Origin: Candidatus Limnocylindrales bacterium
GTDB taxonomy: Bacteria; Chloroflexota; Limnocylindria; Limnocylindrales; CSP1-4
Assembly (NCBI GenBank): GCA_049520815.1
Contig: JBEKPL010000001.1
Location: 2,847-66,846 of the forward strand
Length of the DNA stretch: 64,000 nucleotides
Reading direction: 5' to 3'
Both the position numbers and the translations under genes were made by a program. Positions within the stretch are counted from its first letter, which is position 1; each line of letters opens with the position of its first letter. This document shows, piece after piece, positions 2,647-21,163 of the stretch. The notes under the pieces are model-generated. The model ran no database searches. It saw only the letters and a list, made by a program, of their open reading frames with translations, and had not been told where the DNA came from.

Positions 2647-5600
2647 CTACGCCTCGGCAGTCTCCGGGGCCAGACCCGCCATCCGCCGCGTTCGTACCTT
2701 GGCGTCCTCGACGAGCGAATACACGACCGGGATGACGATGAGCGTCAGGAAGGTCGAAGTGAAGAGACCGCCGATCACGACCGTGGCCAGCTCCGAGGCG
2801 ATGATCTCGCCCTCGGAAAGACCCAGTCCGAGAGGTATCAGGGCCAGGATCGTGGCGATGGCCGTCATCAAGATCGGCCGGACTCTCGTCCGCCCGCCCT
2901 GCATCAGAGCGTCGTACATCGGCATGCCGCGATGCCTGTGCTGCTCGACCAGGTCCAGCAAGACGATGGCGTTGGTGACCACGATGCCGATCAGCATCAG
3001 GAAGCCGATCAGGGCGGAGACGCCGATGGGGCGTTGGGTCAGGAACAGCGCGGGGAAAGCGCCGATCGTGGCCAGCGGCAAGCTGAACATGATGACCAGC
3101 GGATCCACGAGCGAGTTGAAGACGAGAACCATGACGATGTAGACGAGCAGCACGGCGACCGCCATCGAGAAGAACAGACCGCCGAAGGCCTCGTTCATCT
3201 GCTCGGTGACGCCGCCGAGCTTGACCGTCACGCCGGTCAGCTTGCCATCGGCCTTCAGGCCGTCGATCACGTTCTGGATCTCCGTCGAGACGCCACCGGT
3301 GTCCTGGCTGGTGGTGTCTGCCGAGATAGTCGAGGCGGGCGACAGATCCACGCGGCTCACGCGCGCCTGGTGTTCGGCCGGCGCGACCGTCGCGATGGAG
3401 CCGAGGGGCATCTTGCCGGCACCGACCGGCATCAAGGCCAGGGTTTCGATGGAGGTCAGCTTGGCGTCGATCTGGAGGTACACATCGGTCGGGGATCCGC
3501 CGAGAGCGACGGTGCCGGCCTTGGTCCCGACGAGGGCGTTGTAGACCTCCCCCTGAACCTGGGCCGTGCTGGTGCCATCGAGGATCGCCTTGTTCGGATC
3601 GACGTTGATGTCGTATTGGGTGGTCTGGGTGGCGAGGTCGCTCTTGACGTTGAGCAGATCCGGCTGCTTCTTGAGCTCGGCCATCACGAGGGTCGTGGCT
3701 TTCTCGACGTCGGCGATCTTCGGTCCGCTCACGACAACGCTGATCGAGCTGCTGCCGGTCAGACTGTTCTGAGCGACCTGGATCTGCCAGCCGTCCTGCT
3801 GGAGCTTGACCAGCTCATCGGACAGCTTCTTCTGCTCGGTATCGAGGTTCGTGCCCTTGTCCAGGCCGACCACGATCGTAGCGGCGTTGGCCGATCCGCC
3901 GGTGAAGGCGGCGGCAAGCGCCGAGAGGCCGGTGTCGGCTTCGCTGGGAACGGTGGTTTCGATGAGCTTGACTTCGGCGTAGCTCTTGAGCTTGTCCTGA
4001 ACGGCCCTCGCCTGGTCGAGCACGACCGAAGATGGCGTGCCCGAGGGCGGGGCTACCGTGATCGTGAGCTGCTTCTCCGACCCGGCGTTGAGGAACTGGG
4101 TGGGGATGTACGGAAGGAGCAAGCCGGCACCGACGACCAGGGCCGCGGCGATGCCGATCACGCCCCAGCGGCTGCGGCGGTTGTGGAGGGCGGCCTTCAG
4201 GAGCGGGGTGTAGATCCTCTGGACGAGCGTTTCGTGATGCTGCGGTCCCTCGTCGGGATTGAGCTTGATGCGATCGATGAACAGGCTGGCCAGGACCGGG
4301 ACGACGGTCAACGCGCAGATGAGCGAGGCCAGCAGGGCGAAGGTCACGGTCAGGGCAAAGGGCAGGAAGAACTGGCTGACGATGCCGCCGACGAAGCCGA
4401 GCGGCAGGAAGACGGCAACCGTGGTCAGCGTGGAGCTGGTGATGGCGCTGGCGACCTCACGCGTGCCTGATATGCAGGCCTCACGCATCGGATCGCCCTT
4501 GCCACGGTGTCTGTAGATGTTCTCCAGGACGACGATGGCGTCGTCGACAACCCGGCCGACGGCTATCGCCAATCCGCCCAGGGTCATGATGTTGATCGTG
4601 ACGCCGAACCCGAGCATCAGCGTCAAGGCGGTCATGATCGAGACGGGGATGCTCACGGCGGCGACCAACGTCGAACGCAGGCTGAGCAGAAAGAAGAAGA
4701 TCGTCAGCACCGCGAAGATGGCGCCTAGCCCGCCTTCACGAACCAGGCTGTCGCGCGACTCGATGATGAACGACGACGAATCCGAGACGATGTCGATCTC
4801 GAAGCTGTCGTGGTTCTGGGTCTTGAGTTCCTCCAGCTTCGCCAGGGCCGCCTGGACAACACTGACCGTGTTGGCGTCGGTGGTCTTTGTAACGCTGATG
4901 ACCAGCGAGGGCGAGGCGCCGCCGTGCTGCGGGTCCTTGTTTAGCTCCGCGTAGCCGGTCGGATTGACGGCGACTCGCTCGACCGTGCCGAGGTCGCCGA
5001 GGGTGATTGGCGTGGGGACGGTGGCAGTCGATCCCGCAGCCGGCATCTTCGCACCCACTGCCAGAGACAGAAGCTCGTCCTTGCTGCCGAGAACGAGCTG
5101 GTGCTGGGCCGAGACGGGGATGGAGATCGTTGTGCCATCGGCCTTGGTGATCGGCAGTGATCCGGCGGGCAGGATCAGGTTGTTGGCCGCAAGCACGCCC
5201 TGGATCTGGCTGATCGAGACGCCGTTGGCCGCCAGCTTGGCCGGGTCGAGCTTGACGACGAGGCGGTACTGCGTGGCGCCGGTGAGATCGACCTTGCTCA
5301 CGCCGTCCAGACCCTGGAGCGCCGGCACGATGCCTGAAGAAGCCAGCGCGTTCAGCTGATCGGGCGTCGTGGACCCGGTGCCCTTGATGGCCACCATCAG
5401 CGAGGGGAAGGCGTTGATGTCGAACGATTGGATGCTCGATGTGGACGTCAACCCGAGCGCCTTTACGTTCGTGTCGATGGCGGCCGTCGTCTCCTTGATG
5501 TTCGTGCCGTAGGAGAAGGTCGCGACCACGATCGAAAGGCTGTTGACGGAGCTCGAGTTGATGTGCTTCAACCGGGAGATGCTGCCGAGTGAGCGCTCGA

Positions 5601-7228: not shown

Positions 7229-9211
7229 TCAGGCCTCGCGTCGGTAGGGCGAGTCCAGGACCACGAATTCCTTGCGCCCCACCAGCGCCGCGCGGATGCG
7301 ATGCACGTTCTGGTTGTACAGCATGCGGTCCCACCAGTGGCGCGGCAGGTGCTCGGGCAGCAGCACGACGGTGACACGGCCCGGGTCCTCGGCCTGCGAA
7401 ACCTCCAGGTACCGCACGAACGGCCGGACGAGGGCTCGGTAGGGCGACTCCACGAGCACCACCCGGACGCCCGGCAGCTGGCGCTCTAGGCGCTCGCGGA
7501 ACCGCTCGCCTTCGATCGGGTCGATCGTGACGTGAACAACCTGGACTTCTTCGCCCATCGTCTCACCGACCTTGACGGCCTGGACCACGGCCCGGCTCAT
7601 GGCCTGAGCCGCGACCACGACCCGCTGGCGGCGGTGCGGCGGTCCGAACACCAGGTCCGGCTGGACCTCTAGGCCGATCTCCTCCTGGTCGTACTCGTGC
7701 TTGATGAAAAGCATCAGCAGAACCAGGATCGGGACGACGATGATGATGATCCACGCACCCTCTGTGAATTTGGTGGTGATCTGGACGACGACTACGACTG
7801 CAGTAACGCAGGCACCGACCCCGTTGATGAGAGCGCTGCGACGCCAGCCCGGTCCCCGCTCCTTGAACCAGTGGCGGACCATGCCGGACTGCGACAGGGT
7901 GAACGAGGAGAACACGCCGATCGCGTAGAGCGGGATCAGGCTGTTGACGTTGCCCTGGAAGGCGACTACGAGGGCGATCGAAACGCCCGCCAGGACGATA
8001 ATCCCGGAGTTGAAGGCGAGTCGCTCCCCCCGTAAGGCGAACTGACGTGGGAAGAAGCCATCGCGAGAGAGGATTGAGGAGAGGCGAGGGAAGTCGGCGA
8101 ATGACGTCTGCGCCGCCAGCACCAGGATCCCCATCGTTGAGAAGATGAGAACGTAGTAAAGCGGGCTGCGGCCCCAGAAGACCGCCGCGCCGATCTGGCT
8201 GAGGATCGAGTCGCCGGTCGCGGAGGGATGCGCTCCGGTCACCCCAACCAGGAAGCTCATGCCCAGGAACATCGTGCCGAGCAGTGCCGCCATGGCGAGC
8301 ATGGTCTTCTGAGCGTTCTTCCACTCGGGGGGCTTGAAGGCCGGCACGCCGTTGGCGACCGCCTCGGTTCCGGTCATGGCCGAGCAGCCGTCCGCAAAGG
8401 CGCGGCATAGGAGGAAGACCGTCAGGCTCTGGCCCATCCCGGGCAACATCGCCTCCAACGGCGCTCGCGGCGTGTCGCCCAAGAGAATGCGGACGATCCC
8501 CAACCCGATCATCAGAAGCATGCTGCCCAGGAAGATGTAGGTGGGGCTGGCGAAGACCGTCCCGCTTTCGCGCAGGCCGCGTAGGTTGACCGCCATCACC
8601 AGCATGATGAAGGCGACGATGATCTGGACCTTGTAAGGGTCGAGAACGGTGAGAGCCGAGGCCAGGTTGTAGACGCCAGACGAGACGCTCACCGCGACAG
8701 TCAGGACGTAGTCGACCAGGAGCGACGACGCGGCGATGAGCCCGGGCAGCACGCCCAGGTTGGTGTGAGCAACGATGTAGCTGCCTCCGCCGTTGGGATA
8801 GGCGCGGATTGTCTGACGGTAGCTGAATGTGACCAGGAGCAGCAGACCAACGATGAGGAATGAGATCGGCATCAGGTAGCCATACGCGCTCGCACCGACA
8901 ACCGCGAGCGTAAACAGGCTCGCCTCGGCGGCGTAGGCAACCGACGACATCACGTCCGAGGAGAAGACCGGCAGGGCCTTCCACTTCGGCAGCCGCTCCG
9001 TCAGGTCCGCAGCAGAGGACAGCGGGCTGCCGAAAAGGAGAGCGCTGATCCTGGCCCGGCGCCTGCCCCACTCGGTCCGCGGGGCCTGGGCCTCCAGCTT
9101 GGCTTCGAGGACCCCGGGGGCGATGTATCGGAAGTAGCGGGCGTGGGGACGGTCGACTACGACGCGGCGGTCGCCAAGCTTGCGGCCCCGAAGGGACCGT
9201 TGTTCAGCCAT
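7229..9211 (-). CDS. APC-superfamily permease with cytoplasmic C-terminal domain (KimA/YdaO-like; putative K+ or amino-acid transporter)
   Basis: The 660-aa product has 12 TM helices plus a ~150-aa soluble C-terminal domain. An N-terminal FSSDVMSSVAYAAEA motif is recalled from KimA-type APC transporters. It is divergent from the kdp sensor-kinase gene. Confidence 0.7.
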   Translation of the reverse strand: MAEQRSLRGRKLGDRRVVVDRPHARYFRYIAPGVLEAKLEAQAPRTEWGRRRARISALLFGSPLSSAADLTERLPKWKALPVFSSDVMSSVAYAAEASLFTLAVVGASAYGYLMPISFLIVGLLLLVTFSYRQTIRAYPNGGGSYIVAHTNLGVLPGLIAASSLLVDYVLTVAVSVSSGVYNLASALTVLDPYKVQIIVAFIMLVMAVNLRGLRESGTVFASPTYIFLGSMLLMIGLGIVRILLGDTPRAPLEAMLPGMGQSLTVFLLCRAFADGCSAMTGTEAVANGVPAFKPPEWKNAQKTMLAMAALLGTMFLGMSFLVGVTGAHPSATGDSILSQIGAAVFWGRSPLYYVLIFSTMGILVLAAQTSFADFPRLSSILSRDGFFPRQFALRGERLAFNSGIIVLAGVSIALVVAFQGNVNSLIPLYAIGVFSSFTLSQSGMVRHWFKERGPGWRRSALINGVGACVTAVVVVVQITTKFTEGAWIIIIVVPILVLLMLFIKHEYDQEEIGLEVQPDLVFGPPHRRQRVVVAAQAMSRAVVQAVKVGETMGEEVQVVHVTIDPIEGERFRERLERQLPGVRVVLVESPYRALVRPFVRYLEVSQAEDPGRVTVVLLPEHLPRHWWDRMLYNQNVHRIRAALVGRKEFVVLDSPYRREA

Positions 9212-9364
9212 CGGCGGTGGATTCCCTCGCGATCACGATGTCGACCTTACCACCGGGCCGGACGACGGTGGGACTCCCGGCGGCGTCGCGGCGCTCAACA
9301 TCCGCTCAACACACCGCGAGGCATCACGAAGCATTCCGGCTGCCACGGGGCTACGATCGTGGCG

Positions 9365-10957
9365 ATGCATCTCGTGCTTCCGGGACCCGCGCCGGGTCGA
9401 TCCCACGCAGCGCGCGTCGCAGTCCTGAGCCTGGCCGCCCTGGCCGTGGCCACGATCGCGATCGCCCTGCTGCGGGCGGCGACCCACGTCACCTACCCCG
9501 CCCCGGTGTACCTGCTGGCCGTGCTCGCCGTCGGCATGCGGTATGGAACGGTGCCGGCGATGCTGACTTCCGTCGGCGCCTTCCTCCTGTACGACTTCCT
9601 GTTCGTCGAGCCTCTCTACGCCCTGACCATCCGCAACCCGGACGAGTGGCTGAACCTGCTCCTGCTCCTTGCGGTGGCCGCGGTCATCGGCCGCCTGGTC
9701 GCGCTCCAGACCGAGCGGGCCAGCGAGGCCGCAGACCGGGCCCGCGAGGCCGAGGCATTGCATGCCGTCACCGAGGTCCTGGCCGCCACCCGGACGGTAG
9801 ACGAGGCAGCGCCTGCGGTGGTCTCCCGGCTGGAGCGGCTGACGGCGATGGATCGGGTCTGGTTCAGCCTTGGCGCCACGCCGACGGACGAGCGCGTGCT
9901 CGCCGACACGGACCCGAATGCCCCGCTGCCGGTTCCCGGCTGGCAGGTGGTGCTGCAGCGCGGGCCGGATGGGCAGACGCGGTGGGCCCGCACCCACGTG
10001 GGCCTCGGCGCCGCCTGGCGCGCCCCTCGGGCCGCTCTTCACCGGGTCCGCGTCGAGGTCGCCGGCGAGAACCTGGGATCGATCTGGGCCCTCCGTGCCC
10101 GCGGCGAGCGCGAACCGGACCGGGCCGAGACGCGCGTGCTATCCGCCGCCGCCGACCAGCTGGGCCAGGCCGTGGTCCGAGACCGGCTCGCCCGCGAGGC
10201 GACCACCGCGGAGATCGCACGGGAGAGCGAAGCCCTCAAGACCGCCCTCCTGGACTCCGTTTCCCACGACCTGCGCACGCCCCTGGCCACGATCCGGGCT
10301 GCCGCCGGCAGCATGCTCGATCCACAGGTCGCCTGGTCGGCTGAGGAGCAGCGCGATGCCTTCCGGGCCATCGATTCGGAGGCCGAACGAATGGGCCGGC
10401 TGGTCCGCAACCTCCTCGACCTCAGCCGGATCGAAGGCGGAGCCCTCCAGCCGGAGCTCGAGCCGTGCGATCTCGACGACCTGGTGCCCCAGGTGGCCAG
10501 GCGCGCCGCCGGCGCCACGACCAAGCAGGTGCGCGTGGAGCTGCCCGACTCGCTGCCGCCGGTGCTGGCCGATGAGTTGTACCTGAACCAGGTACTGGCC
10601 AACCTGCTGGAGAACGCCATTCGCCACGGCGGCGACACGATCCGCGTGCGGGGCGCCCATCGGCCGGACGGGCTGGTCGAGATCAGCGTCGAGGACGACG
10701 GACCGGGCGTGCCCGCTTCCGCCCTGCCGCACCTGTTCGAGAAGTTCTACCAGGCCGGGCCCCCCGGCGAGAGCAAGAGACGCGGCATGGGCATCGGCAT
10801 GACCGTGGTCGAGGGCCTGACGCGGGCCATGCGCGGCGAGGTCTCAGCGAGCCGCAGCGAATTCGGCGGCTTGCGTGTGGACGTGCGGCTGCACCCCGCG
10901 CTCGTGCCGGACGACGCCGCCGGGCCGACGACGGCGACCGAGAAGGCCACGCCATGA
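9365..10957 (+). CDS. KdpD C-terminal-type sensor histidine kinase (DUF4118 TM domain + GAF-like + HisKA + HATPase); lacks the KdpD N-terminal/Usp domains
   Basis: The LLYDFLFVEPLY segment marks the KdpD TM domain. The H-box is SHDLRTPLATI. The GMGIGMTVVEGL segment marks the HATPase G2 box. The first ATG after the divergent permease is at 9365 (MHLVLPG…). The stop overlaps the kdpE start (ATGA). Confidence 0.8.
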   Translation: MHLVLPGPAPGRSHAARVAVLSLAALAVATIAIALLRAATHVTYPAPVYLLAVLAVGMRYGTVPAMLTSVGAFLLYDFLFVEPLYALTIRNPDEWLNLLLLLAVAAVIGRLVALQTERASEAADRAREAEALHAVTEVLAATRTVDEAAPAVVSRLERLTAMDRVWFSLGATPTDERVLADTDPNAPLPVPGWQVVLQRGPDGQTRWARTHVGLGAAWRAPRAALHRVRVEVAGENLGSIWALRARGEREPDRAETRVLSAAADQLGQAVVRDRLAREATTAEIARESEALKTALLDSVSHDLRTPLATIRAAAGSMLDPQVAWSAEEQRDAFRAIDSEAERMGRLVRNLLDLSRIEGGALQPELEPCDLDDLVPQVARRAAGATTKQVRVELPDSLPPVLADELYLNQVLANLLENAIRHGGDTIRVRGAHRPDGLVEISVEDDGPGVPASALPHLFEKFYQAGPPGESKRRGMGIGMTVVEGLTRAMRGEVSASRSEFGGLRVDVRLHPALVPDDAAGPTTATEKATP

Positions 10958-11694
10958 GCGGTCCCGCGCTGCTGATCGTCGAAGACGAGGAACCCGCTCG
11001 TCGCGCCCTGACCGACTACCTGGAGCGTCGCGGCTATGAGGTCTACGAGGCGGCGACGGCTCTGGAGGCGATGCGCCAGTGGGACGCCCACCGCGCCGAT
11101 CTGGTCCTGCTCGACCTGGGCCTGCCCGACCTCGACGGAGTGGACGTCATCCGGCGTATCCGTCGCGAGGCCACCACGCCGATCATCATCCTGTCCGCCC
11201 GCGGCGACGAGCGCGACAAGATCTCCGGCCTGGAGGCCGGCGCGGACGACTACCTGACGAAGCCCTTCGCCACCGACGAGTTGAACGCCCGAATCCGGGC
11301 CGTCCTCCGGCGGGCCGGCGGTCCCGATGCCGACGCCGGGGGCTGCCTGAGGCTCGGCCCGATCGAGCTCGATGCGGTGCGCTGGGAGGTCCGCGTTTCG
11401 GGCGAGCTGGTACGCCTCACGCCCCGCGAGTACGAGTTGCTCAAGGTCATGTTGTCAAATCAGGGCCGCCTCCTTACCAAGGCCCGGCTGCTGCGCGCGG
11501 TCTGGGGCCTGGCCTACGCCGACGAGAGCGCCTACCTCCACGTCTACGTGAATCGGCTCCGCCGCAAGCTCTCGGCCGCGGCACCGGCCACTTCGCTGGA
11601 GGGCCTGATCGAGACGGAGCCCGGCATCGGCTACCGCATCGCCGACCACGAGTCGCTGGGCGAGTTGCCGCCATCAGGTGCGGTGGCGCGGTGA
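10954..11694 (+). CDS. kdpE: OmpR-family response regulator KdpE
   Basis: It has a receiver domain (LLIVEDEE…DLVLLDLGLPDLDG) and a winged-helix domain (LTPREYELLKV…YLHVYVNRLRRKL). It is translationally coupled to the upstream kinase. Confidence 0.85.
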   Translation: MSGPALLIVEDEEPARRALTDYLERRGYEVYEAATALEAMRQWDAHRADLVLLDLGLPDLDGVDVIRRIRREATTPIIILSARGDERDKISGLEAGADDYLTKPFATDELNARIRAVLRRAGGPDADAGGCLRLGPIELDAVRWEVRVSGELVRLTPREYELLKVMLSNQGRLLTKARLLRAVWGLAYADESAYLHVYVNRLRRKLSAAAPATSLEGLIETEPGIGYRIADHESLGELPPSGAVAR

Positions 11695-11847
11695 GATCAG
11701 GGGCTCAAGTCCCCTTGGGGGCACCCAGCCTGTGCAGGTTCGAGCGGCGGGACTACCTCGCGACCACCTGGGCCCGCGGCAGCCAGCCGAGCGACCGACC
11801 CGGGCTAGCCACGCGGATCGGTCGCCCTGGCGTGCGTTCCGGCCGAT

Positions 11848-11871
11848 TCGTTTAGACCGCGTTTAGCGATC
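11848..11871 (+). promoter_or_regulatory. direct repeat CGTTTAG-N5-CGTTTAG upstream of the hypothetical/CheY/kdpFABC genes (candidate response-regulator box)
   Basis: CGTTTAG occurs at 11848 and 11860 with a 12-nt period. The 14-mer TAGACCGCGTTTAG (11854-11867) is identical to 44651-44664. Confidence 0.25.
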
Positions 11872-11923
11872 TGGTCCCATCGGACACCGGCCGCCTCTTG
11901 GGGGGCCGGGCAATCCTTGTGAC

Positions 11924-12193
11924 ATGGAACGCCACGCCGCCCGCGAGAATGCGGCTCTCGACCCGGAGGAGACCCGGCGCCGGCTGACCTCGGAGGTCGC
12001 CGAGGTCGAGAGCGCCATGGCTCTCGTGGCGTCGGGCTCGGCCACGCGCATCACCCTTGCCGGCCTGAGGTTCGGCGGGCAGCTAGCGGAGCGCTTCTCC
12101 GCGATCGCCCGGTTGAAGGGCCTGCGCCTCGAACCGCTGCCCTGGCCCGACGACTCGGGCTGCGACCTGGTCGTGCGGAGGAGCGATGAATAG
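11924..12193 (+). CDS. hypothetical protein (89 aa)
   Basis: The ORF has GC-typical codon use. Its 3' end overlaps the start of the following receiver gene by 8 nt. No family was recognised. Confidence 0.35.
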   Translation: MERHAARENAALDPEETRRRLTSEVAEVESAMALVASGSATRITLAGLRFGGQLAERFSAIARLKGLRLEPLPWPDDSGCDLVVRRSDE

Positions 12194-12611
12194 CGGGATG
12201 CTCTCGGCCCGAGTCTTGCTGATCGAGGACGATCTCGACCTGGCCGGCATCGTCGTCCGCCATCTGCGGGCGCGCGGCCACGACGCGCGTCTAGCCTCCT
12301 CCGCCGAGGACGCCGAAGACCAGCTCCGGGCGGGCTTTCGCCCGACCGTCGTCCTGCTGGACATCAACCTGCCGGGCGCCTCCGGCTGGGACCTCCTCCG
12401 CTCCGACCGGCTGCGCGCCGCCGGATCACCCGCGGTCTACGTCGTCAGCGCCACGTCCGTGCCGCCGGCTCGCCTGCGCGAATTCGACGTCGCGGGCTTC
12501 CTGCCCAAGCCGTTCGCCCTGCCGACCCTGATCGAGATCGTCGAGCGCGCAGGTCGTGAAGCCCCGGACGGCGGGGGATCCAGCTCACCGGAGGATACCG
12601 ATGCCTTCTGA
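12186..12611 (+). CDS. stand-alone CheY-like receiver-domain protein
   Basis: The sequence VLLIEDDLDLAGIV…VVLLDINLPGASGWDLL…FLPKPF is a receiver fold with no output domain. It is inserted between kdpE and kdpF. Confidence 0.7.
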   Translation: MNSGMLSARVLLIEDDLDLAGIVVRHLRARGHDARLASSAEDAEDQLRAGFRPTVVLLDINLPGASGWDLLRSDRLRAAGSPAVYVVSATSVPPARLREFDVAGFLPKPFALPTLIEIVERAGREAPDGGGSSSPEDTDAF

Positions 12612-12693
12612 CTTCGCGTTCGTCGTTCTGATCCTGGCCGGTGGCCTCTTCTTCGGGGGCTTCATCTGGCTGTGCGACAGGTTGGCCCGATGA
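12601..12693 (+). CDS. small hydrophobic peptide (30 aa), possible second KdpF-like peptide
   Basis: The peptide is MPSDFAFVVLILAGGLFFGGFIWLCDRLAR, a single TM helix. Its ATG overlaps the receiver-gene stop. Its TGA overlaps the kdpF ATG (ATGA). Confidence 0.25.
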   Translation: MPSDFAFVVLILAGGLFFGGFIWLCDRLAR

Positions 12694-12779
12694 ACGTCCA
12701 GGACCTCCTCGGCGGCCTGATCGCCCTCTTCGTGGGCCTCTATCTGCTCTTCAGCCTCCTTCGCGCGGAAAGGTTCTAG
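12690..12779 (+). CDS. kdpF: K+-transporting ATPase subunit F
   Basis: The 29-aa peptide is MNVQDLLGGLIALFVGLYLLFSLLRAERF. It ends in the KdpF-typical …L(R/P)(A/E)E(K/R)F. The kdpA ATG follows immediately at 12780. Confidence 0.6.
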   Translation: MNVQDLLGGLIALFVGLYLLFSLLRAERF

Positions 12780-14504
12780 ATGATCCCCTCCGTTCCCGGG
12801 CTGATCCAGGCCTTCGTTCTCTTCGCTGCCGCAATCCTGCTGGCGCGGCCGCTGGGCGGGTACATGCGCAAGGTCATGGAGGGCGAGCGCACCTTCCTGT
12901 GGCCCGTGCTGCGGCCGGTGGAGCGCGGCATCTACCGCCTGATGCGCGTGGACGAGACGCAGGAGCAGCGTTGGACCGCCTACGCGGTCTCGGTGATCGT
13001 CTTCTCTCTCGTCTGCATCCTGGCCCTCTACCTCCAGCAGCGGCTGCAGGGATCCTTGCCCCTGAATCAGGCAGGAATGGGCCCCGTCTCGCCGGACCTC
13101 GCCTACAACACGTCGGTCTCCTTCGACACCAACACCAACTGGCAGAACTACGCCGGCGAGACGACGATGACGTTACTGACCCAGATGGCCGGGCTGGCGG
13201 TCCGCAACTTCGTCTCGGCGGCCACCGGCATCGCCATCGCCATCGCCCTGACGCGCGGCCTGGTCCGGCACTCGTCGAAGACGATCGGCAACTTCTGGGT
13301 CGACCTCACCCGCGGCACGCTCTACATCCTGCTGCCGATATCGTTCGTGGCCGCGCTCTTCCTGGTCTCGCAGGGCGTCGTCCAGACCTTCGCCGCATCG
13401 ATCGACGCGACCACGCTGCAGGGCACGCACCAGTCGATCCTGACCGGGCCGATCGCCTCGCAGGAGGCGATCAAGGAGCTGGGCACCAACGGCGGCGGCT
13501 TCTTCAACGCCAACTCGGCGCACCCCTTCGAGAACCCGACAGCGCTCTCGAACTGGTTCGAGATGCTGCTGATCCTGATCATTCCGTTCGCCCTGACGAA
13601 CACGTTCGGCCGGATGGCCGGCGACGCGCGCCAGGGCTGGGCGTTGCTCGCGGTCATGGTCATCGTGCTGAGCGTCGGCGCCTTCGTCGCCATGGGTAGC
13701 GAGGAGCGATCCAACCCCTCCATCCCTGCCGCGGTCGCCCAGAACATCGATCAGTCCGCCGGGAACATGGAGGGCAAGGAGACTCGCTTCGGGCCCGACA
13801 CCAGCGGCCTCTTCGCCACGGTCACGACCGGCACGAGTACCGGCGCTGTCGACTCCATGCACGACAGCTTCCTGCCCGTCGGCGGCCTGGTGCCGCTCTT
13901 CAACATCGAGCTGGGTGAGATCGTCCCGGGCGGCGTCGGGGCCGGCCTGTACGGCATCCTCATCTTCGCCATCCTGGCCGTCTTCATCGCCGGGCTCATG
14001 GTTGGCCGCACGCCCGAATACCTGGGCAAGAAGATCGAGGCCTACGAGATGAAGATGGCGATGCTCGTCGTCCTTTCTCTGGCCTTCAGCATCCTGGTCT
14101 TCACCGCGATAGCCACGGCCACACCCGCGGGGAAGGCGGGGCCGCTGAACGGCGGCCCGCACGGCTTCAGCGAGATCCTGTACGCCTACTCGAGCCAGAC
14201 CGGCAACAACGGCTCCGCATTCGCCGGGCTCGCCGGCAACACGCTCTTCTACAACGTGACCGGCGCATTCGCGATGCTGATCGGGCGGTACGCCATGATC
14301 GTGCCGATCCTGGCCATCGCCGGCTCGCTGGCCGCCAAACGGCGCGTGGCGCCGTCCCTTGGCACCTTCCCCACCACCGGCCCGATCTGGATCGGCCTGC
14401 TGATCGGCGTGATCGTCATCGTCGGCGCGTTGACCTTCTTCCCCGCCCTGGCGCTCGGCCCGATCGTCGACCAGCTGCTCAACAACGCCGGGAGGCTGTT
14501 CTGA
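12780..14504 (+). CDS. kdpA: K+-transporting ATPase subunit A
   Basis: The 574-aa multi-TM protein has an [16 protein letters not shown]… N-terminus and selectivity-filter-like [18 protein letters not shown], both typical of KdpA. Confidence 0.95.
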
Positions 14505-16738
14505 TGGCCGTCGAGATCGCCGGCGGCCTCCGCCGCGGACTCATCTCGCCGTCTGTGGTCGACACCGCTCGCGGGACCCGCCGCGTCGCCCGCGAGGAGC
14601 GCCAGGCTCGGGCCGGCGGCGCCTCCGGCGGTCCGCGCCAGCGCGGGATCTTCGAACCCGCGCTGCTCCGCGGAGCGCTCGGGCCGGCCGTCCGCAAGAT
14701 GAGCCCGCGTCAGCTCGCCAAGAACCCGGTCATGTTCGTGGTCGAGGTGGCGGCCGCTCTGGTGACCCTCGTCCTCGTCTCGGACTTCCTGGGGCTGAGC
14801 ACGGCCGCCCCGGGCGAGGTCGGCCGATCGGTCGGCTTCGAGCTGCAGATCGCGATCTGGCTGTGGTTCACCGTCTACTTCGCCACGTTCGCCGAGGCCC
14901 TGGCCGAGGCGCGCGGCAAAGCCCAGGCGGCCAGCCTGCGCAAGACGCGATCGGAGACGCTGGCCCACCGCCGCCTGCCCGACGGCACCCTCGAGGACGT
15001 GGGCTCGTCGGCGCTTTGCTCCGGCGACATCGTCGTGGTGCGCGATGGCGAGACGATCCCCGGAGACGGTGACGTCATCGAAGGCGTGGCCTACGTCAAC
15101 GAGGCGGTCATCACCGGCGAGTCCGCCCCCGTTCTCAAGGAGCCGGGCACGGACATCCGCAGCACGGTCACGGGCGGGACCACTCTTGTCAGCGACACGC
15201 TGACGGTGCGCATCACCGCCAACCCTGGCGAGACCTTCCTCGACCGAATGATCGCCCTGGTGGAGGGCGCCAAGCGGCAGCGGACGCCGAACGAGATTGC
15301 CCTCTCGATCCTGCTATCCGGATTGACCCTGGTCTTCCTGCTCGCCACGGCGACCCTGCGGCCCTTCGGCTTGTACGCCGGCGCCCCGCTGGGGATCGTG
15401 GTCCTGGTGGCGCTGCTGGTCTGCCTGATCCCGACGACGATCGGCGGGCTGCTCTCGGCCATCGGCATCGCGGGCATGGATCGAGTGGCCCGCTTCAACG
15501 TCCTGGCCATGAGCGGCCGGGCCGTGGAAGCGGCCGGGGACGTGGACGTGATCCTGCTCGACAAGACGGGCACGATCACCTACGGCAACAGGCTCGCGTC
15601 GCGGATCGTGCCCCTCCCCGGAGTGACGGAGAGGGAGGCCGTGGAGGCGGCCCTGCTCACGTCGCTGGCCGACGACACGCCCGAAGGACGCTCCATCGTG
15701 GAGCTGGCGCGCCGCCGCCTCGAGGAGCTCGGGGAGCGCAAGAAGCCCAGGGTCGCGCGATCGACCGTCGCGCCGGCCGGACCCGTCGTCGGGAAGCCAC
15801 CCTCGGTGGCCGAGGTGATCCCCTTCTCCGCCGAGTCGCGGACGAGTGGCGTGATCCTGGCCGACGGCACGGTCGTGCTTAAGGGCGCCGTGGACGCCAT
15901 TCGAGCGGCGCTGGATGGCGAGATCCCCCCTGAGTTGGCGACCCTCTCCGACGAGATCGCGGGGCTCGGCGCAACGCCACTGGCGATCCGGCGCGACGGC
16001 CGCGCCCTGGGAGTGATCGAGCTCAAGGACACCGTCAAGCCGGGCCTGCGCCAGCGCTTCGACGAGCTGCGCCGCATGGGCATCCGGACCGTCATGGTCA
16101 CGGGCGACAACCCGCTGACGGCACGCACGATCGCGGAAGAGGCGGGCGTGGACGATTTCATGGCCCAGGCCAAGCCCGAGGACAAGATCGCCCGCATTCG
16201 GGCCGAGCAGGCCGCAGGCCACCTGGTGGCCATGACCGGGGACGGCACCAACGACGCGCCCGCGGTCGCCCAGGCGGACGTAGGCCTGGCCATGAACAGC
16301 GGCACGTCCGCATGCAAGGAGGCCGCCAACATGGTCGACCTCGACTCCGACCCTACCAAACTGATCGAAGTTGTCGCCATCGGCAAGCAGCTGCTGATCA
16401 CTCGCGGCGCCATCACCACCTTCTCCATCGCCAACGACGTGGCCAAGTACTTCGCCATCCTGCCGGCGATGTTCGCGGTGGCCTACCCGGCCCTGAATCA
16501 GCTCAACGTCATGGGCCTGGCGAACCCCCAGAGCGCGATCCTGTCGGCGGTCGTCTTCAACGCCCTGGTCATCATCGCCCTGGTCCCGCTCTCGCTGCGA
16601 GGCGTCGCCTACCGGGCAGCTCCCGCAGCCGAGCTGCTGCGGCGCAACCTGCTCATCTACGGCGTCGGCGGCATGGTCGCCCCCTTCCTGGGAATCAAGG
16701 CGATCGACCTCCTCATCACCGCCGTGCACCTGGCCTAG
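14504..16738 (+). CDS. kdpB: K+-transporting ATPase subunit B (P-type ATPase)
   Basis: It has DKTGTIT (phosphorylation site) and [17 protein letters not shown] (hinge). The start overlaps the kdpA stop. Confidence 0.95.
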
Positions 16739-16747
16739 GAGTCATCG

Positions 16748-17326
16748 ATGCGAAGCTTCCTTCGAACCCAGATCTGGCCCGCGGTGGCGGTTCTGCTGGC
16801 GCTGACGATCGTCACCGGCTTCATCTACCCAGCCGTCGTCACTGCCGTCGCGCAGGTGGCCTTTCCATCGCAGGCGAATGGCTCCCAGATCGTGGCCAAC
16901 GGCAAGACCGTGGGCTCCGCCTTGATCGGCCAGACCTTCGACGATCCGAAGTACCTCTGGGGCCGGCCATCGGCTGCCGGCGCCGGCTACGACCCCACGC
17001 TCTCGGGGGGCTCGAACCTTGGGCCGACCTCGCAGGCGCTGATCGACCAGATCAGTAAGCGGGTCGACGCCCTGCGGGCCGCCAATGGTAGCGCACCGAT
17101 CCCGATCGACCTGGTGACAGCCTCGGCGTCTGGGCTTGATCCGGACATCAGCCCCGCGGCCGCCGAGTACCAGATCCCTCGAGTGGCCAGGGCCCGCGGG
17201 ATCAGCGAGGACGCGGTTCGCGCGGTGGTCGCCAGACACACGTCGCAGCCGCTGTTGTGGTTCCTGGGCGAACCGACCGTCAACGTCCTGGCGGTGAACC
17301 TGGACCTGGACGGACTCCTCCGATGA
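16748..17326 (+). CDS. kdpC: K+-transporting ATPase subunit C
   Basis: It encodes 192 aa with an N-terminal TM helix and SASGLDPDISPAAA, which is KdpC-typical. Confidence 0.9.
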   Translation: MRSFLRTQIWPAVAVLLALTIVTGFIYPAVVTAVAQVAFPSQANGSQIVANGKTVGSALIGQTFDDPKYLWGRPSAAGAGYDPTLSGGSNLGPTSQALIDQISKRVDALRAANGSAPIPIDLVTASASGLDPDISPAAAEYQIPRVARARGISEDAVRAVVARHTSQPLLWFLGEPTVNVLAVNLDLDGLLR

Positions 17327-17354
17327 AGTCCACACTCAGACCGGGAGGCCCACG

Positions 17355-18509
17355 ATGACCCACACCGATCTCGAGCCCAAGCGGCCGACCGGCGACGAGA
17401 TGCTCGCCCGCCTGCAGGCCGAGGAGCATCAGGGCCGCGGCCGCCTCCGCATCTACATGGGAATGGCCCCGGGCGTGGGCAAGACCTTCTCGATGCTGGA
17501 AGAGGCGCACCGCCGCCACGACCGGGGGACGGACGTGGTGGTTGGCTTCGTCGAGACGTACGGGCGCCGCCACACGGCCGCGCTGCTGGACGGGCTCGAG
17601 GCCGTGCCTCGCCGCCGGATCGAGTATCGCGGTGTGGTCGTCGAAGAGATGGACACCGACGCGGTGATCGCCCGCCATCCCGCCGAGGCGCTGGTGGACG
17701 AGCTGGCCCACACCAACGCCCCGGGCTCTCCCCGCGAGAAGCGCTGGCAGGACGTGGAGGCCATCCGCGACGCCGGCATCGACGTCATCAGCACCTGCAA
17801 CGTCCAGCACGTCATATCGGTCGCGGACGCCGTCGAGACGATCCTGGGCGTGCCCGTCCGCGAGCGGGTGCCCGACGAGGAGGTCCGGTCCGCCGAGGAG
17901 ATCGAGCTTGTCGACATGAGCCCGCACGCGCTGCGGCAGCGGATGCGCCACGGCAACGTCTACCCGCCCGATAGGGCCGCGATTGCGCTGGAGCGCTTCT
18001 TCACCGAGCCGAACCTGATGGCCCTGCGAGACCTGAGCCTGCGGTTCGTAGCCGGTCAGGTGGACCAGGAGCTAGAGGGGATCGTGGCACGCCAGGGTCT
18101 CGGGCTGCCATCGGTCGCCGAGCGGGTCATGGCCGTTGTCGACGAGTCGCCGGGATGCCGGCGCGGGCTGCGTCGCGCCTCCTCGCTCGCCAGCGTCTTG
18201 CGGGCGCCCTGGATCGCGGTGGCCGTCGAGACGCCAGCAGTGCAGCAGTCGCGCGACCGCCGGCAGAACCTGCAGGCCAACGTGGACTACGCGACGGATC
18301 TGGGCGCCGAGATCATCCGGGGCGAAGCATCGGATCTGGGCAGAGGGTTGGCGGAGGTCGCCCGTGACCGTCGCATCAGCCACGTCGTCCTGGTTCACCG
18401 GCCCCATCGCGGGCTCGGCCTGGGTCGTCCCTCGCTCGCGGACCGCCTCCTGGACGAGATCCCGGGGCTGGAGATCCACCTTGTCGGCGAGCCGGTGAGC
18501 AACCGATAG
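17355..18509 (+). CDS. kdpD: KdpD N-terminal sensor domain + universal stress protein (Usp) domain, stand-alone (no TM or kinase domain)
   Basis: The sequence RGRLRIYMGMAPGVGKTFSMLEEA (Walker A) …DVISTCNVQH… is typical of the KdpD N-terminal (PF02702-type) domain. The C-terminal half is Usp-like. The protein is 384 aa and ends before any TM segment. Confidence 0.85.
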   Translation: MTHTDLEPKRPTGDEMLARLQAEEHQGRGRLRIYMGMAPGVGKTFSMLEEAHRRHDRGTDVVVGFVETYGRRHTAALLDGLEAVPRRRIEYRGVVVEEMDTDAVIARHPAEALVDELAHTNAPGSPREKRWQDVEAIRDAGIDVISTCNVQHVISVADAVETILGVPVRERVPDEEVRSAEEIELVDMSPHALRQRMRHGNVYPPDRAAIALERFFTEPNLMALRDLSLRFVAGQVDQELEGIVARQGLGLPSVAERVMAVVDESPGCRRGLRRASSLASVLRAPWIAVAVETPAVQQSRDRRQNLQANVDYATDLGAEIIRGEASDLGRGLAEVARDRRISHVVLVHRPHRGLGLGRPSLADRLLDEIPGLEIHLVGEPVSNR

Positions 18510-18525
18510 CCGCCCGAAGCACTCC

Positions 18526-19230
18526 TCACTCCGCGACGACGCGGTACCCCACCCCCGGCTCGGCGACGATGAGCTTGGCCGCGGCGCCGGACGGATCTGC
18601 GGCGGCGAGCTTGCGGCGCAGGCGGCTGACGTAGACGTGGAGGTAGTGGCCCTCGTCCGAGTAGGCGGTACCCCAGACCGCACGGAGGAGCCGGCCCGCC
18701 GTCACGACGCGCCCGGGCTGCGAGAGCAGCACTTTGAGCAGCTCGAACTCGCGCGGGGTCAGCTCCACCGGGGTCTCCCCCACCCTGACCTCGTGGTGCG
18801 GCACGTCCAGCACCACCGGTCCGAGCCGCAGTCGGCCCTCCGTATCCGCACCAGGCCCGGCCGCCCGGCGTAGCAGCGCCCGCATTCGGGCGTGCAGCTC
18901 CGATAGCCCGAACGGCTTGGTCAGGTAGTCGTCGGCGCCGGCATCGAGGGCCGCCACTCGATCCTCCTCCCGGCCGCGGGCCGAAACCACGATGATCGGT
19001 GTGGTGGCCTCGCGGCGAACACGCCGGATGACGGCCTGGCCGTCGAAATCGGGCAAGCCCAGGTCGAGCAGGATCAGGTCCGGCCGGCGGATGTCCCAGA
19101 GGCGGAGCGCCTCGCGCACGTCGCCGGCCTCGTCTACCTCGTGGCCCCGAGCCCGGAGGTTGGTGGCGATCGCGGCCCTGGCCGCCTCGTCGTCCTCGAC
19201 GATCAGGACGACGGCCGCCCCGTCGCTCAC
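18526..19230 (-). CDS. OmpR-family response regulator, KdpE paralog
   Basis: This is the C-terminal 234 aa of ORF 18526..20214 (VSDGAAVVLIVEDDEAARA…YLHVYVSRLRRKL). The GTG start overlaps the upstream kinase stop (GTGA). Confidence 0.8.
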   Translation of the reverse strand: MSDGAAVVLIVEDDEAARAAIATNLRARGHEVDEAGDVREALRLWDIRRPDLILLDLGLPDFDGQAVIRRVRREATTPIIVVSARGREEDRVAALDAGADDYLTKPFGLSELHARMRALLRRAAGPGADTEGRLRLGPVVLDVPHHEVRVGETPVELTPREFELLKVLLSQPGRVVTAGRLLRAVWGTAYSDEGHYLHVYVSRLRRKLAAADPSGAAAKLIVAEPGVGYRVVAE

Positions 19231-20990
19231 GCCAGAGGTCCCGGAGACGGAGCGGCGTCGGCCGGCCGGGCCGGTTCGACTGCGGGTTCGACCGACCCGA
19301 CGGGTTCGACCGACCCGACGGGTTCGACCGCCCCTCCGGCCGCGTCCTCGACCGCCGGCTCGACGGCCCGTTCGGCTGGCTCGGCGTCCTCCGCGGGCAA
19401 CCGGACGACCACCGCCAGCCCACCGAGCGAGCTCTGTCTTGCGTCGGCAGAACCGCCCATCGCCTCCGCCAGGCCGCGAACCACAGCCAGCCCGATCCCC
19501 GAGCCGCCCTCTACTCGCGAACCCTGGCGCCGCGGCGCGCGATAGAACCGTTCGAAGAGATGCGGCAACGCAGCTGCGGGGACTCCCGGCCCGGCATCTT
19601 CGACCACGAGATCGACGCGACCCACCCGGGCCTGGCGTGCCGAGACTCGGATTCGGCGTCCCGCAGCATACCTGGCCGCATTCTCGAGCAGGTTGGTCAG
19701 GATCTGGTCCACGAACATCCCATCGGCCCGGACGGCCGGCAGGTTCTGCGCGACCGCGACCTCCAGGTCGGAGGGTGCCAGCATCGGCCGTATTCGCTCG
19801 ACGACCGGCTCGATGATGTCGGCCAGGTCGTACAGCTCCAGCGACGGATGCAGCGCACCGCCTTCGATGCGACCGAGGTCGAGCATGTTGCGGACCAGCC
19901 GGCTCAGCCGCTCCGCCTCCCGGTCGATCGAACCGGCGGTTACGCGCGTCGCCTCCTGGGTCACCGCCACGTCCGGATCCATCAGTATCCCGGCCGCTGC
20001 CCGGATCGCCGCCAGTGGCGTACGAAGGTCGTGAGAGACGGAGTCGAGCAGGGCCGACTTGAGCGCATCGCTCTGGCGTGCCACCTCGGCTGCCGTGGCT
20101 TCGGCCGCCAGCCTGTCGCGAATGACCGACTGGCCGAGCTGGTCGGCGGCCGCGGCCAGAAGCCGAGTGTGCGAGCGCCCCGGGAACGGATCCTCTCGAT
20201 GTCGGGTCGCCCACAGCGAACCGATCGTCTCGCCGCCGGCTTCGATTGGGATGCGGAAGACCGTCACCGGCTCATCGCCTTCGCGGGCCGCCTTGCGCCG
20301 GGCCTCGCGCTGATCGACCGCGCGATCACCGGCCCGGCCGATCGCCGGCTCGCGCACGCGGGACCAGCTGGGCTGGGCGTCGGCCGAGTGCGAGTGGAGC
20401 AACCATCTCGAGGTGACCGGCGGCCGGGGCTCGCCCGCCACGCTGTCGGCCACGACTCGCTCTTCCGGGATCGCGGCGCCCAGGCCGATCCAGACCCGTG
20501 CCATCTCGGCCTCGCGCGCCAGGCGCGCGGCCAGAAGCGGTGCAGCCTCGAGGGCCGTAGCCGCCGTGGCGATGTCGCGGCTCATGGCGAACATAGCCCG
20601 CGCCTCGGCGCTGCGAAGCTCCGCCTCCCGGCGCCGCCGGAGCTGCAGCGCGCTCAGCCGCCCGATGACGGTAGCTACCACCAGGAAGAGCAGCAGATCG
20701 AGCCACTCCTCCGGCGCCGCCATCGCGAACGTGTGCAGCGGCTGGACGAAGAAGAAGTCGTACAGCAGGAACGAGATCACAGCAGTGGCCACGGCCAGCC
20801 AGCTGCCGTAGCCCATACCGACGGCCAAGACCGGCAGCAGATAGACGATCGAGGCATGCTGCACGCCCAGCGGGCCGTGGACCACCGCCGCGAGGGCCGT
20901 AGCGGAAGCCAGGCCCAGGCCGGCCACGATCAGCCCGGCCGTCGACGGCCGGCGCGGTCGCAAGATCGAGAAACGCGGGCGACTCAGCAC
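19227..20990 (-). CDS. KdpD C-terminal-type sensor histidine kinase paralog with repetitive acidic C-terminal tail
   Basis: The LLYDFFFVQPLH TM domain, SHDLRTPLAAI and a HATPase domain are present. The C-terminus carries EPVGSVEPVGSVEP repeats. Confidence 0.8.
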   Translation of the reverse strand: MLSRPRFSILRPRRPSTAGLIVAGLGLASATALAAVVHGPLGVQHASIVYLLPVLAVGMGYGSWLAVATAVISFLLYDFFFVQPLHTFAMAAPEEWLDLLLFLVVATVIGRLSALQLRRRREAELRSAEARAMFAMSRDIATAATALEAAPLLAARLAREAEMARVWIGLGAAIPEERVVADSVAGEPRPPVTSRWLLHSHSADAQPSWSRVREPAIGRAGDRAVDQREARRKAAREGDEPVTVFRIPIEAGGETIGSLWATRHREDPFPGRSHTRLLAAAADQLGQSVIRDRLAAEATAAEVARQSDALKSALLDSVSHDLRTPLAAIRAAAGILMDPDVAVTQEATRVTAGSIDREAERLSRLVRNMLDLGRIEGGALHPSLELYDLADIIEPVVERIRPMLAPSDLEVAVAQNLPAVRADGMFVDQILTNLLENAARYAAGRRIRVSARQARVGRVDLVVEDAGPGVPAAALPHLFERFYRAPRRQGSRVEGGSGIGLAVVRGLAEAMGGSADARQSSLGGLAVVVRLPAEDAEPAERAVEPAVEDAAGGAVEPVGSVEPVGSVEPAVEPARPADAAPSPGPLA

Positions 20991-21163
20991 GTGCCCATGG
21001 TAGGCCGCGGAGTGACTTGCGGCTCGCGCCGCGACTCACTCGAGCTCTCGGCCGCCTCGCGGCCTATCGGCCCCCTCGCAATCCATCGCCAGTCTCGCGG
21101 CTCCTGGCGTCCGCTCACCTGCGCTCCCACCGGACCCCGGGCTCGGCCGCCTAGAATACGGCC

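Follow-up and report, generated by a model that had tools for sequence, protein, structure and literature searches.

Three conserved genes ahead of kdpF point to a putative extra layer of potassium-uptake control in Candidatus Limnocylindrales

The Kdp pump, controlled by KdpD/KdpE, serves as a textbook example of ion homeostasis and of two-component signalling. To this example an entire order of uncultured bacteria that abound in soil and peat, Candidatus Limnocylindrales (Chloroflexota), contributes three further conserved parts. In the 64,000-nucleotide (nt) stretch of Limnocylindrales DNA analysed here, hereafter the window (68% G+C), the genes of the pump are preceded by genes for an 89-amino-acid (aa) protein (orf89), a stand-alone response-regulator receiver (REC) and a 30-aa membrane peptide (pep1). 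Taking gene and operon structure jointly, we hold it highly probable that these three belong to an eight-gene potassium-limitation operon, orf89-rec-pep1-kdpF-kdpA-kdpB-kdpC-kdpD_N, whose 5' end is formed by positions 11924-12779. This layout points to an additional, putative layer of control over potassium uptake. The genes of the operon, together with the Shine-Dalgarno sequences of REC and pep1, are as follows.

11924-12193, plus strand: orf89, 89 aa, first gene of the operon.
12177-12183, plus strand: GGAGGAG, Shine-Dalgarno sequence of REC.
12186-12611, plus strand: REC, 141 aa, stand-alone response-regulator receiver (PF00072).
12590-12595, plus strand: GGAGGA, Shine-Dalgarno sequence of pep1, situated within the 3' end of REC.
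12601-12693, plus strand: pep1, 30 aa (MPSDFAFVVLILAGGLFFGGFIWLCDRLAR), single-pass membrane peptide.
12690-12779, plus strand: kdpF, 29 aa, F subunit of the Kdp K+ pump (PF09604).
12780-14504, plus strand: kdpA, 574 aa, Pfam KdpA family, E 4e-241.
14504-16738, plus strand: kdpB, pump gene with the TGES motif in its translation.
16748-17326, plus strand: kdpC, pump gene in the tight cluster downstream of kdpF.
17355-18509, plus strand: kdpD_N, KdpD N-terminal domain plus Usp (PF02702), last gene of the cluster.

Every junction from orf89 through kdpC is an overlap or a gap of at most 28 nt. A preliminary description of the window, made from the sequence alone, had listed four junctions at the 5' end, and three of them stand as it gave them, namely the 8-nt overlap between orf89 and REC (ATGAATAG), the 4-nt ATGA overlap between pep1 and kdpF, and the kdpF stop TAG (12777-12779), which abuts the kdpA ATG at 12780 with a gap of 0 nt. 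The receiver/pep1 junction, however, was taken for an abutment and is an 11-nt overlap, with the pep1 ATG lying inside the 3' end of REC. A terminator or promoter separating the additional genes from kdpFABC was also looked for in the sequence, and neither terminator-like nor sigma-70-like sites were detected in 11924-12780. Because the overlaps are conserved and nothing resembling a terminator or promoter matched between the genes, we place the three additional genes in one unit with kdpFABC.

High-GC genomes give many long spurious open reading frames (ORFs), and many were seen in the window, which would be the argument for regarding the three genes as chance ORFs in GC-rich DNA or as an annotation artefact. 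Conservation refutes this alternative, to which we leave practically no probability. The GC content at the third codon position (GC3) is of the coding type in the correct frames (0.90 for orf89, 0.85 for REC, 0.81 for pep1 and 0.90 for kdpF), with second-position values of 0.53, 0.51, 0.45 and 0.27, respectively. In the comparison set, which consisted of GTDB species-representative genomes and metagenome contigs, there are hundreds of length-conserved homologues. The scan of the GTDB species representatives yielded 30 loci, about 28 of which carry orf89-REC-pep1-kdpF-kdpA-kdpB in the same order, the kdpB (E1-E2_ATPase) and kdpC families being also carried by homologues in related loci, and gene calls on long related contigs gave lengths and overlaps identical to those of the window. 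The 8-nt overlap between orf89 and REC is identical in 17/17 loci tested, and ATGA was found in 26/27 of the pep1/kdpF junctions examined, with GTGA in the one other locus. Pooled pairwise ratios of nonsynonymous to synonymous substitution (dN/dS) are 0.29 for orf89, 0.21 for REC, 0.37 for pep1 and 0.21 for kdpF, all well below 1. Given their GC3, their homologues, their synteny and overlaps and the dN/dS range of 0.21-0.37, orf89, REC and pep1 are real genes under purifying selection, which upholds the earlier claim of genuine extra genes chained by overlaps to kdpFABC; both the 89-aa ORF and pep1 are conserved in relatives.

The layout is typical of Candidatus Limnocylindrales and of related uncultured lineages. 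For distant relatives of orf89 the genomic contexts were read from single look-ups, their alignments being too divergent for a pattern-based scan. The full chain of an orf89 relative (84-93 aa), REC (127-142 aa), pep1 (29-30 aa) and kdpF (29 aa) recurs at the loci L038, L043, L044, L045/46 and L047, and it is retained in distant metagenomic lineages with orf89 identity down to about 38%. In these distant full-chain loci kdpA is next wherever the contig reaches; L045 and L047 add kdpB, kdpC and kdpD_N, and L047 also carries a gene for a KimA-type potassium symporter (kimA).

The region upstream of orf89 bears on how the operon begins, and contains three conserved elements.

11851-11866, plus strand: direct repeat TTTAGACCGCGTTTAG with half-sites TTTAGA and TTTAGC (TTTAGA-N5-TTTAGC), predicted KdpE box, -73 to -58 from the orf89 ATG.
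11894-11901, plus strand: CCTCTTGG, a conserved motif located downstream of the repeat box and upstream of the -10-like element.
11912-11917, plus strand: -10-like hexamer AATCCT (consensus gATcCT), separated by 6 nt from the orf89 ATG.

When the 240-nt regions preceding orf89 in 22 loci were aligned, a variable part was seen to give way to a sharply conserved block, in which gTTTAGa-N4-gTTTAGc, about 27 nt, CCTCTTGG, 10 nt, gATcCT, 6 nt and the ATG succeed one another. The TTTAG repeat has a period of 11 bp, and an 11-bp direct repeat is the usual form of an OmpR-family site. It has a single match in the 64-kb window, against an expectation of 0.09 matches by chance, and at least one match arose in 8/100 shuffles. 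Each of 27 related loci likewise has one copy, which invariably precedes orf89 by about 72 nt; in distant lineages the half-sites are altered (CTTGA, CTTAG, GTTGA) and the 11-bp period is kept. The repeat box also resembles the footprinted KdpE site of Mycobacterium smegmatis, CCGTAAAGAAACCATCAAGGCC, which reads CTTGA-N6-CTTTA on the opposite strand (PMC5401905), and we treat TTTAGA-N5-TTTAGC as a candidate KdpE box.

In CCTCTTGG the CCTCTTG is identical in 22/22 aligned promoters and the final G in 21/22, and L035, L038, L039 and L042-L047, distant loci with changed half-sites, still have a CTCTTGG/CTTGG core. A standard -35 element was rejected for this motif, which at 10 nt is too close to the -10-like hexamer. 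A hairpin was rejected as well, as RNAalifold on the 22 promoters detected no conserved RNA pairing around it (2 invariant pairs, 0 covariation). So was a riboswitch or leader RNA: the Rfam scan of 9000-22000 at E<=1 returned one chance plastid match only, and no ydaO/c-di-AMP riboswitch. The -10-like hexamer is conserved in position and sequence across the 22 aligned loci, and in these loci the orf89 ATG lacks a Shine-Dalgarno sequence at the proper spacing. Since the hexamer ends 6 nt from the ATG and a spaced Shine-Dalgarno sequence is missing, the alignment suggests a leaderless or near-leaderless orf89 transcript, with its predicted start at or near the ATG.

About ten relatives retain the promoter block although kdpE and orf89 are separated there by unrelated genes, often on the opposite strand. 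Because the block is kept where unrelated genes split kdpE from orf89, we infer that orf89 is the first gene of a KdpE-dependent kdp operon, behind a promoter of its own. The preliminary description had pictured the additional genes as wedged between kdpE and kdpF, and this picture has to be given up, as they head the kdp operon.

The spacer between kdpE and orf89 (11695-11923) is 229 nt long in the window vs about 67 nt in L001, and within it 11710-11770 has a GC3-like bias in a frame without a conserved ORF, possibly a decayed remnant. The same promoter architecture was also seen at L039-L041, upstream of a distant member of the orf89 family (orf85 at L039:864-1121), in the form of CCTTAG-N6-CCTTAG, CCTCTTGG and ATCCTC.

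The 89-aa ORF had been treated as an incidental hypothetical protein; orf89 turned out instead to be the most widespread of the additional elements, and it tracks KdpE-linked K+-uptake operons generally. Zero Pfam or NCBIfam models match it. It has 109 close homologue clusters, nearly all of 88-89 aa and 55-87% identical, for which Limnocylindrales is the sole taxon label; an exhaustive profile search gave 229 family representatives at 50% identity, mostly of 83-95 aa, and a word-indexed search 607 clusters at 90% identity. Across this family, which shares the core (L..E...V..AI.LVASG.A.RVT..GLRFG....A...GV.L.P.W..DD.G.D..V.), only E24 and A62 are nearly invariant. The AlphaFold2 (AF2) model of orf89, with a predicted local distance difference test score (pLDDT) of 82, has a disordered N-terminus followed by a helix (14-37), a strand (42-45), a second helix (51-64) and two strands (67-73 and 80-86). 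orf89 is a soluble alpha/beta protein that founds a new unannotated family of about 85 aa. Among 35 close and among 66 diverse members no His position was invariant or nearly so, and a histidine phosphotransfer protein (Hpt/Spo0B-like) was rejected for want of an invariant His on a helix. Foldseek of the model against the PDB gave nothing with E<0.1. The top matches, all non-significant, were ribosomal protein S8, R3H domains and KhpB (E 0.19-1.9, template-modelling (TM) score 0.43-0.49). An R3H domain was rejected, the match to 2cpm having an E of 0.26 and a TM score of 0.46, and the Arg of GLRFG lacking a His at +4.

Three loci, L033, L034 and L042, have a relative of orf89 between kdpE and the gene of a KimA-type K+ symporter, which comes directly after it; the junction is an ATGA overlap in L033 and L034, and none of these three kimA-type loci has REC or pep1. 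On three contigs from three samples (L035-37) an orf89-like domain is fused to REC in a 219-aa protein, P0308, which sits upstream of a kimA homologue. Both domains of P0308 are confident in its AF2 model (pLDDT 90.9), the linker has a pLDDT below 50, and a Foldseek search with the model found receiver domains as the sole structural neighbours. This fusion in one lineage links orf89 and REC functionally by the Rosetta-stone argument. Because orf89 occurs in two unrelated transporter operons, is always promoter-proximal and has a receiver as its fusion partner, a signalling role is favoured, and these contexts suggest that its target is signalling and not the Kdp pump itself. Since their relatives head kimA operons and are fused in one lineage, orf89 and REC are unlikely to be pump subunits.

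The same fusion, and the fact that the best, non-significant Foldseek matches of orf89 are small RNA-binding alpha/beta domains, would also suit a split response regulator, in which orf89 would be a small RNA- or DNA-binding output under REC that acts on kdp/kimA mRNA or DNA. We give this only a slim chance, as no fold match is significant, the R-x3-H of R3H is absent, the order of the fusion, with the output N-terminal to REC, is atypical, and orf89 stands without REC in kimA operons.

A further possibility is post-translational: orf89, with phosphorylated REC where present, would bind KdpB/KimA or a shared ligand (c-di-AMP, K+) and so gate transport. Its translational coupling in both operon types, through the ATGA to kimA in L033/L034 and through the chain to kdpF, is in keeping with such a role, and the conserved strand, Gly-rich loop (GLRFG) and helix could, speculatively, form a small-ligand site; post-translational control of Kdp is known, exerted via KdpB Ser162 by the KdpD N-terminal domain (PMC11018627, PMC7535926). 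KdpFABC and KimA, however, are structurally unrelated, so that one small protein binding both is unlikely, orf89 has no similarity to known c-di-AMP receptors in Pfam, NCBIfam or Foldseek, and the receiver as fusion partner points to two-component signalling. We consider transport gating quite unlikely.

REC is a single-domain receiver, just as the preliminary description had it, and its phospho-acceptor site is intact. PF00072 is its only Pfam match (47.8 bits, cut-off 30.2), and its residues D15/D16, D59, S87, F105 and K108, all conserved, align with D12/D13, D57, T87, Y106 and K109 of CheY. Because the catalytic and switch positions are kept on the CheY alignment, REC should be phosphorylatable. 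Both KdpEs of the window (KdpE1 and KdpE2) carry PF00486, and a KdpE/OmpR-family transcription factor was rejected for REC, which has no PF00486 and at 141 aa is too short for an output domain. A recent KdpE copy was rejected too, the identity of REC to the KdpE receivers being 29% for KdpE1 and 35% for KdpE2.

The window holds two paralogous pairs of a KdpD-type kinase and a KdpE (HK1/KdpE1 and HK2/KdpE2), in agreement with the two kinase systems named in the preliminary description, and REC could in principle serve them as a phosphate sink or decoy, as proposed there, such that the kinases would phosphorylate it and its fast autodephosphorylation would damp kdp induction, with orf89 unrelated or accessory. 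REC would be suited to this: it consists of one domain, has the full set of catalytic residues, would be co-expressed from the promoter presumed to depend on KdpE, and carries a nearly invariant Asn at D+2 (N61), a residue associated with fast autodephosphorylation in CheY-like receivers. We nevertheless regard a sink as unlikely. In addition to the low identity to the KdpE receivers, the residues of helix alpha-1 that we take to be the kinase-specificity positions read L-A-V-V-H-L in REC vs A-R-L-T-Y-L in KdpE1 and A-R-I-A-N-L in KdpE2, and a sink leaves unexplained both the strict pairing and fusion with orf89 and the presence of orf89 without REC in kimA operons.

The explanation that we prefer combines the operon, a signalling pair and a role for pep1 at the pump, and as a whole we rate its chances as slightly better than even. 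Under K+ limitation a KdpD-type kinase would become active, and phosphorylated KdpE would bind the TTTAGA-N5-TTTAGC box; transcription from at or just before the orf89 ATG would then provide orf89, REC and pep1 along with the pump. orf89 and REC would form an accessory signalling pair, with orf89 as a receiver-domain partner and REC as the phosphorylatable receiver, and the pair would tune the output of the KdpD-type kinase and KdpE, in the simplest case by feedback on KdpE phosphorylation. In kimA operons without REC, orf89 could act on the receiver of KdpE itself. pep1, predicted from its charges to be N-out and C-in like KdpF, would join KdpFABC as an extra small subunit, stabiliser or modulator. 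Taken by itself, the assignment of orf89 and REC as a signalling pair, drawn from gene context and alignments, is tentative and falls somewhat short of an even chance. The most far-reaching form of the proposal, that orf89 is a new class of receiver-domain partners heading KdpE-controlled Kdp/KimA operons, that with REC it makes a new feedback/integration branch and that pep1 is a fifth Kdp subunit, is doubtful when all of this is taken jointly.

Several points weigh against the preferred explanation. All genomes compared are metagenome-assembled genomes, from Stordalen 'fen', SPRUCE and Danish MFD samples, or metagenome contigs, and both the assignment of the KdpE box and the transcription start are inferred. 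The P0308 fusion is confined to one 50%-identity cluster, and its predicted TM score (pTM) of 0.62 leaves the mutual orientation of the domains loose. orf89 itself has no recognisable fold relative in the PDB, conserved His or known phosphatase motif. One orf89 relative (L039-41) adjoins an Ada/AlkA-like gene on short contigs, in which a K+ transporter, a receiver and kdp genes were not seen. The alpha-1 differences may weaken phosphorylation of REC by HK1/HK2, making another, unlinked kinase possible, and pep1 could act on the kinase instead of the pump.

As for the two small peptides, the product of kdpF scores above the curated Pfam cut-off (PF09604, 25.2 bits, cut-off 21.2, E 1.5e-5) and is encoded immediately upstream of kdpA, which identifies it as KdpF; with TIGR02115 it reaches 22.9 bits, below the cut-off of 26.85. 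pep1 has no Pfam or NCBIfam match at E<=0.1, and a diverged KdpF duplicate was rejected, as hhalign against the KdpF profile gave a 0.2% probability and 1 aligned column. As had been proposed, pep1 is a second single-pass peptide in its own right, separate from KdpF. Both peptides are of 29-30 aa with one hydrophobic helix, an acidic N-terminus and a basic C-terminus, and they are translationally coupled neighbours in one operon, but pep1 has WLCDRLAR where KdpF has LLRAE.F, and it accompanies, never replaces, a bona fide KdpF. The consensus of pep1 is MLFDLAMIALMAACLLFFMGLIWLCDRLAR, with a constant length of 29-30 aa. Its C-terminal motif W-L-C-D-R-L-A-R is conserved, with LCDRVAR in the distant L038, whose orf89 is about 42% identical; in the window the N-terminal half is unusually divergent and the C-terminal IWLCDRLAR is kept. 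Within the orf89-containing loci, for which its occurrence was assessed, pep1 lies between REC and kdpF in every kdp-type locus and is found in 0 kimA-type loci. Being present in the former and absent from the latter, pep1 tracks the Kdp pump, and from this strict co-occurrence we consider the odds evenly balanced that it is a pump-associated peptide binding KdpFABC.

An SD-type core, A/G-GGAGG (mostly AGGGAGGA), precedes the pep1 start by 4-6 nt in 27/27 loci. The strong Shine-Dalgarno sequence of pep1, the weak one of kdpF and the ATGA overlap between them would fit a pep1 that is a coupling upstream ORF only, delivering ribosomes to kdpF/kdpA and encoding a functionless peptide. This is very unlikely, since pep1 is conserved at the amino-acid level (proportions of nonsynonymous and synonymous differences, pN 0.17 vs pS 0.38, for the dN/dS of 0.37), its length does not vary, and the hydrophobic core and LCDR(L/V)AR are kept in a distant lineage. 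At L029 and L030 (~4121-4213), from more distant Limnocylindrales genomes, the pep1 frame and Shine-Dalgarno sequence are conserved and the aligned first codon is ACG; the start there is probably a neighbouring non-ATG codon.

Each of the three products has known counterparts in format. MgtS/MgtR (MgtA/MgtC), phospholamban/sarcolipin, FXYD, AcrZ and CydX are small single-pass regulators, about 30 aa long, of P-type ATPases and other membrane complexes that are co-expressed or induced with a transporter, and pep1 has a similar format and no sequence relationship to them. Stand-alone receivers are known as sinks, hubs and allosteric regulators, among them Sinorhizobium CheY1, Caulobacter DivK/MrrA and FixT; REC, likewise a single receiver, has kept its active site and is encoded beside a two-component system, and unlike them it lies in a kdp operon and is paired, once even fused, with a novel protein of 85-90 aa. 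PmrD, which binds PmrA-P, and IraP/IraD/IraM, which bind RssB, are two-component-induced proteins of about 85 aa that bind receiver domains. They resemble our working model of orf89, for which such binding is putative, and share no sequence or fold similarity with it. An extra small kdp ORF is said to have a precedent in kdpG of Anabaena.

The kdpFABC backbone, KdpF, the receiver fold and split KdpD are already known. In the literature searched we found no description of the three additional genes, of the orf89 family or of the association of this family with Kdp and KimA operons, nor any paper that connected a stand-alone receiver, or Limnocylindria, with Kdp operons; to that extent the preliminary description's statement that the arrangement is undescribed for Kdp holds. 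At 50% identity the orf89 family comprises more than 200 clusters; it lacks annotation and a PDB fold relative and is associated with K+-uptake operons of two unrelated types of transporter. If the preferred explanation is true, two-component output would be tuned by a new accessory mechanism, and a P-type ATPase complex would have a new small subunit or regulator. At a minimum, the orf89 family merits a name and pep1 routine annotation.

The operon is flanked by the two kinase/KdpE pairs and by a kimA homologue.

7229-9211, minus strand: KimA-type K+/H+ symporter homologue (PDB 6s3k, E 4e-135), divergent from HK1.
9294-9310, minus strand: GTTGAG-N5-GTTGAG direct repeat, 83-99 nt upstream of the kimA ATG, single match in the window.
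9365-10957, plus strand: HK1 (DUF4118-HisKA-HATPase, by Pfam), with 9365 as its probable start.
10954-11694, plus strand: KdpE1 (by Pfam).
18526-20990, minus strand: HK2/KdpE2 pair, converging on the kdp cluster.
19227-20990, minus strand: HK2 (DUF4118-HisKA-HATPase with a weak GAF match, by Pfam).

HK1 and HK2 are 49% identical and KdpE1 and KdpE2 63% identical, as paralogous pairs, and neither kinase has PF02702. The longest ORF of HK1 begins with a GTG at 9143 and overlaps the divergent kimA start. Because of this overlap, and because homologues are of 520-551 aa, translation probably begins at the ATG at 9365 instead, giving 530 aa. The HK1-KdpE1 pair is adjacent to orf89 in most relatives, not all, and is presumed to drive the orf89 promoter. 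The GTTGAG half-site is also found ahead of the orf89-like/kimA operons at L033 and L034; the KdpE of these loci is 67-68% identical to KdpE2 vs 58% to KdpE1. These two features of the kimA operons suggest one two-component pair per importer, with KdpE1 and the TTTAG box assigned to kdp and KdpE2 and the GTTGAG box to kimA.

At the other end of the operon, kdpD_N (17355-18509) matches PF02702 with an E of 3e-87 and Usp weakly, and it matches NF038185 ('KdpD-like non-kinase potassium sensor') with an E of 8e-93, below the cut-off of that model. Its position after kdpC is also seen in relatives. Since kdpD_N follows kdpC, and the DHp/CA kinase and the regulator are encoded separately, the locus belongs to the split-KdpD kdp loci, which are known from Deinococcus, cyanobacteria and Alicyclobacillus and have the same backbone, with a KdpD N-terminal/Usp protein after kdpC, a nearby membrane histidine kinase and an OmpR-type regulator; in the parts read, the published accounts mention no orf89, stand-alone receiver or second small peptide before the pump genes (PMC5716572; PMC11018627). 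By analogy with E. coli Kdp, the kdpD_N chain of the window could be a serine kinase that inhibits the pump (PMC11018627).

Finally, an 18-nt tandem repeat of 2.9 copies with a 97% match lies at 19283-19334, near the 3' end of the HK2 coding region and just upstream of the KdpE2 gene, and encodes a repeated PVGSVE tail of this kinase.

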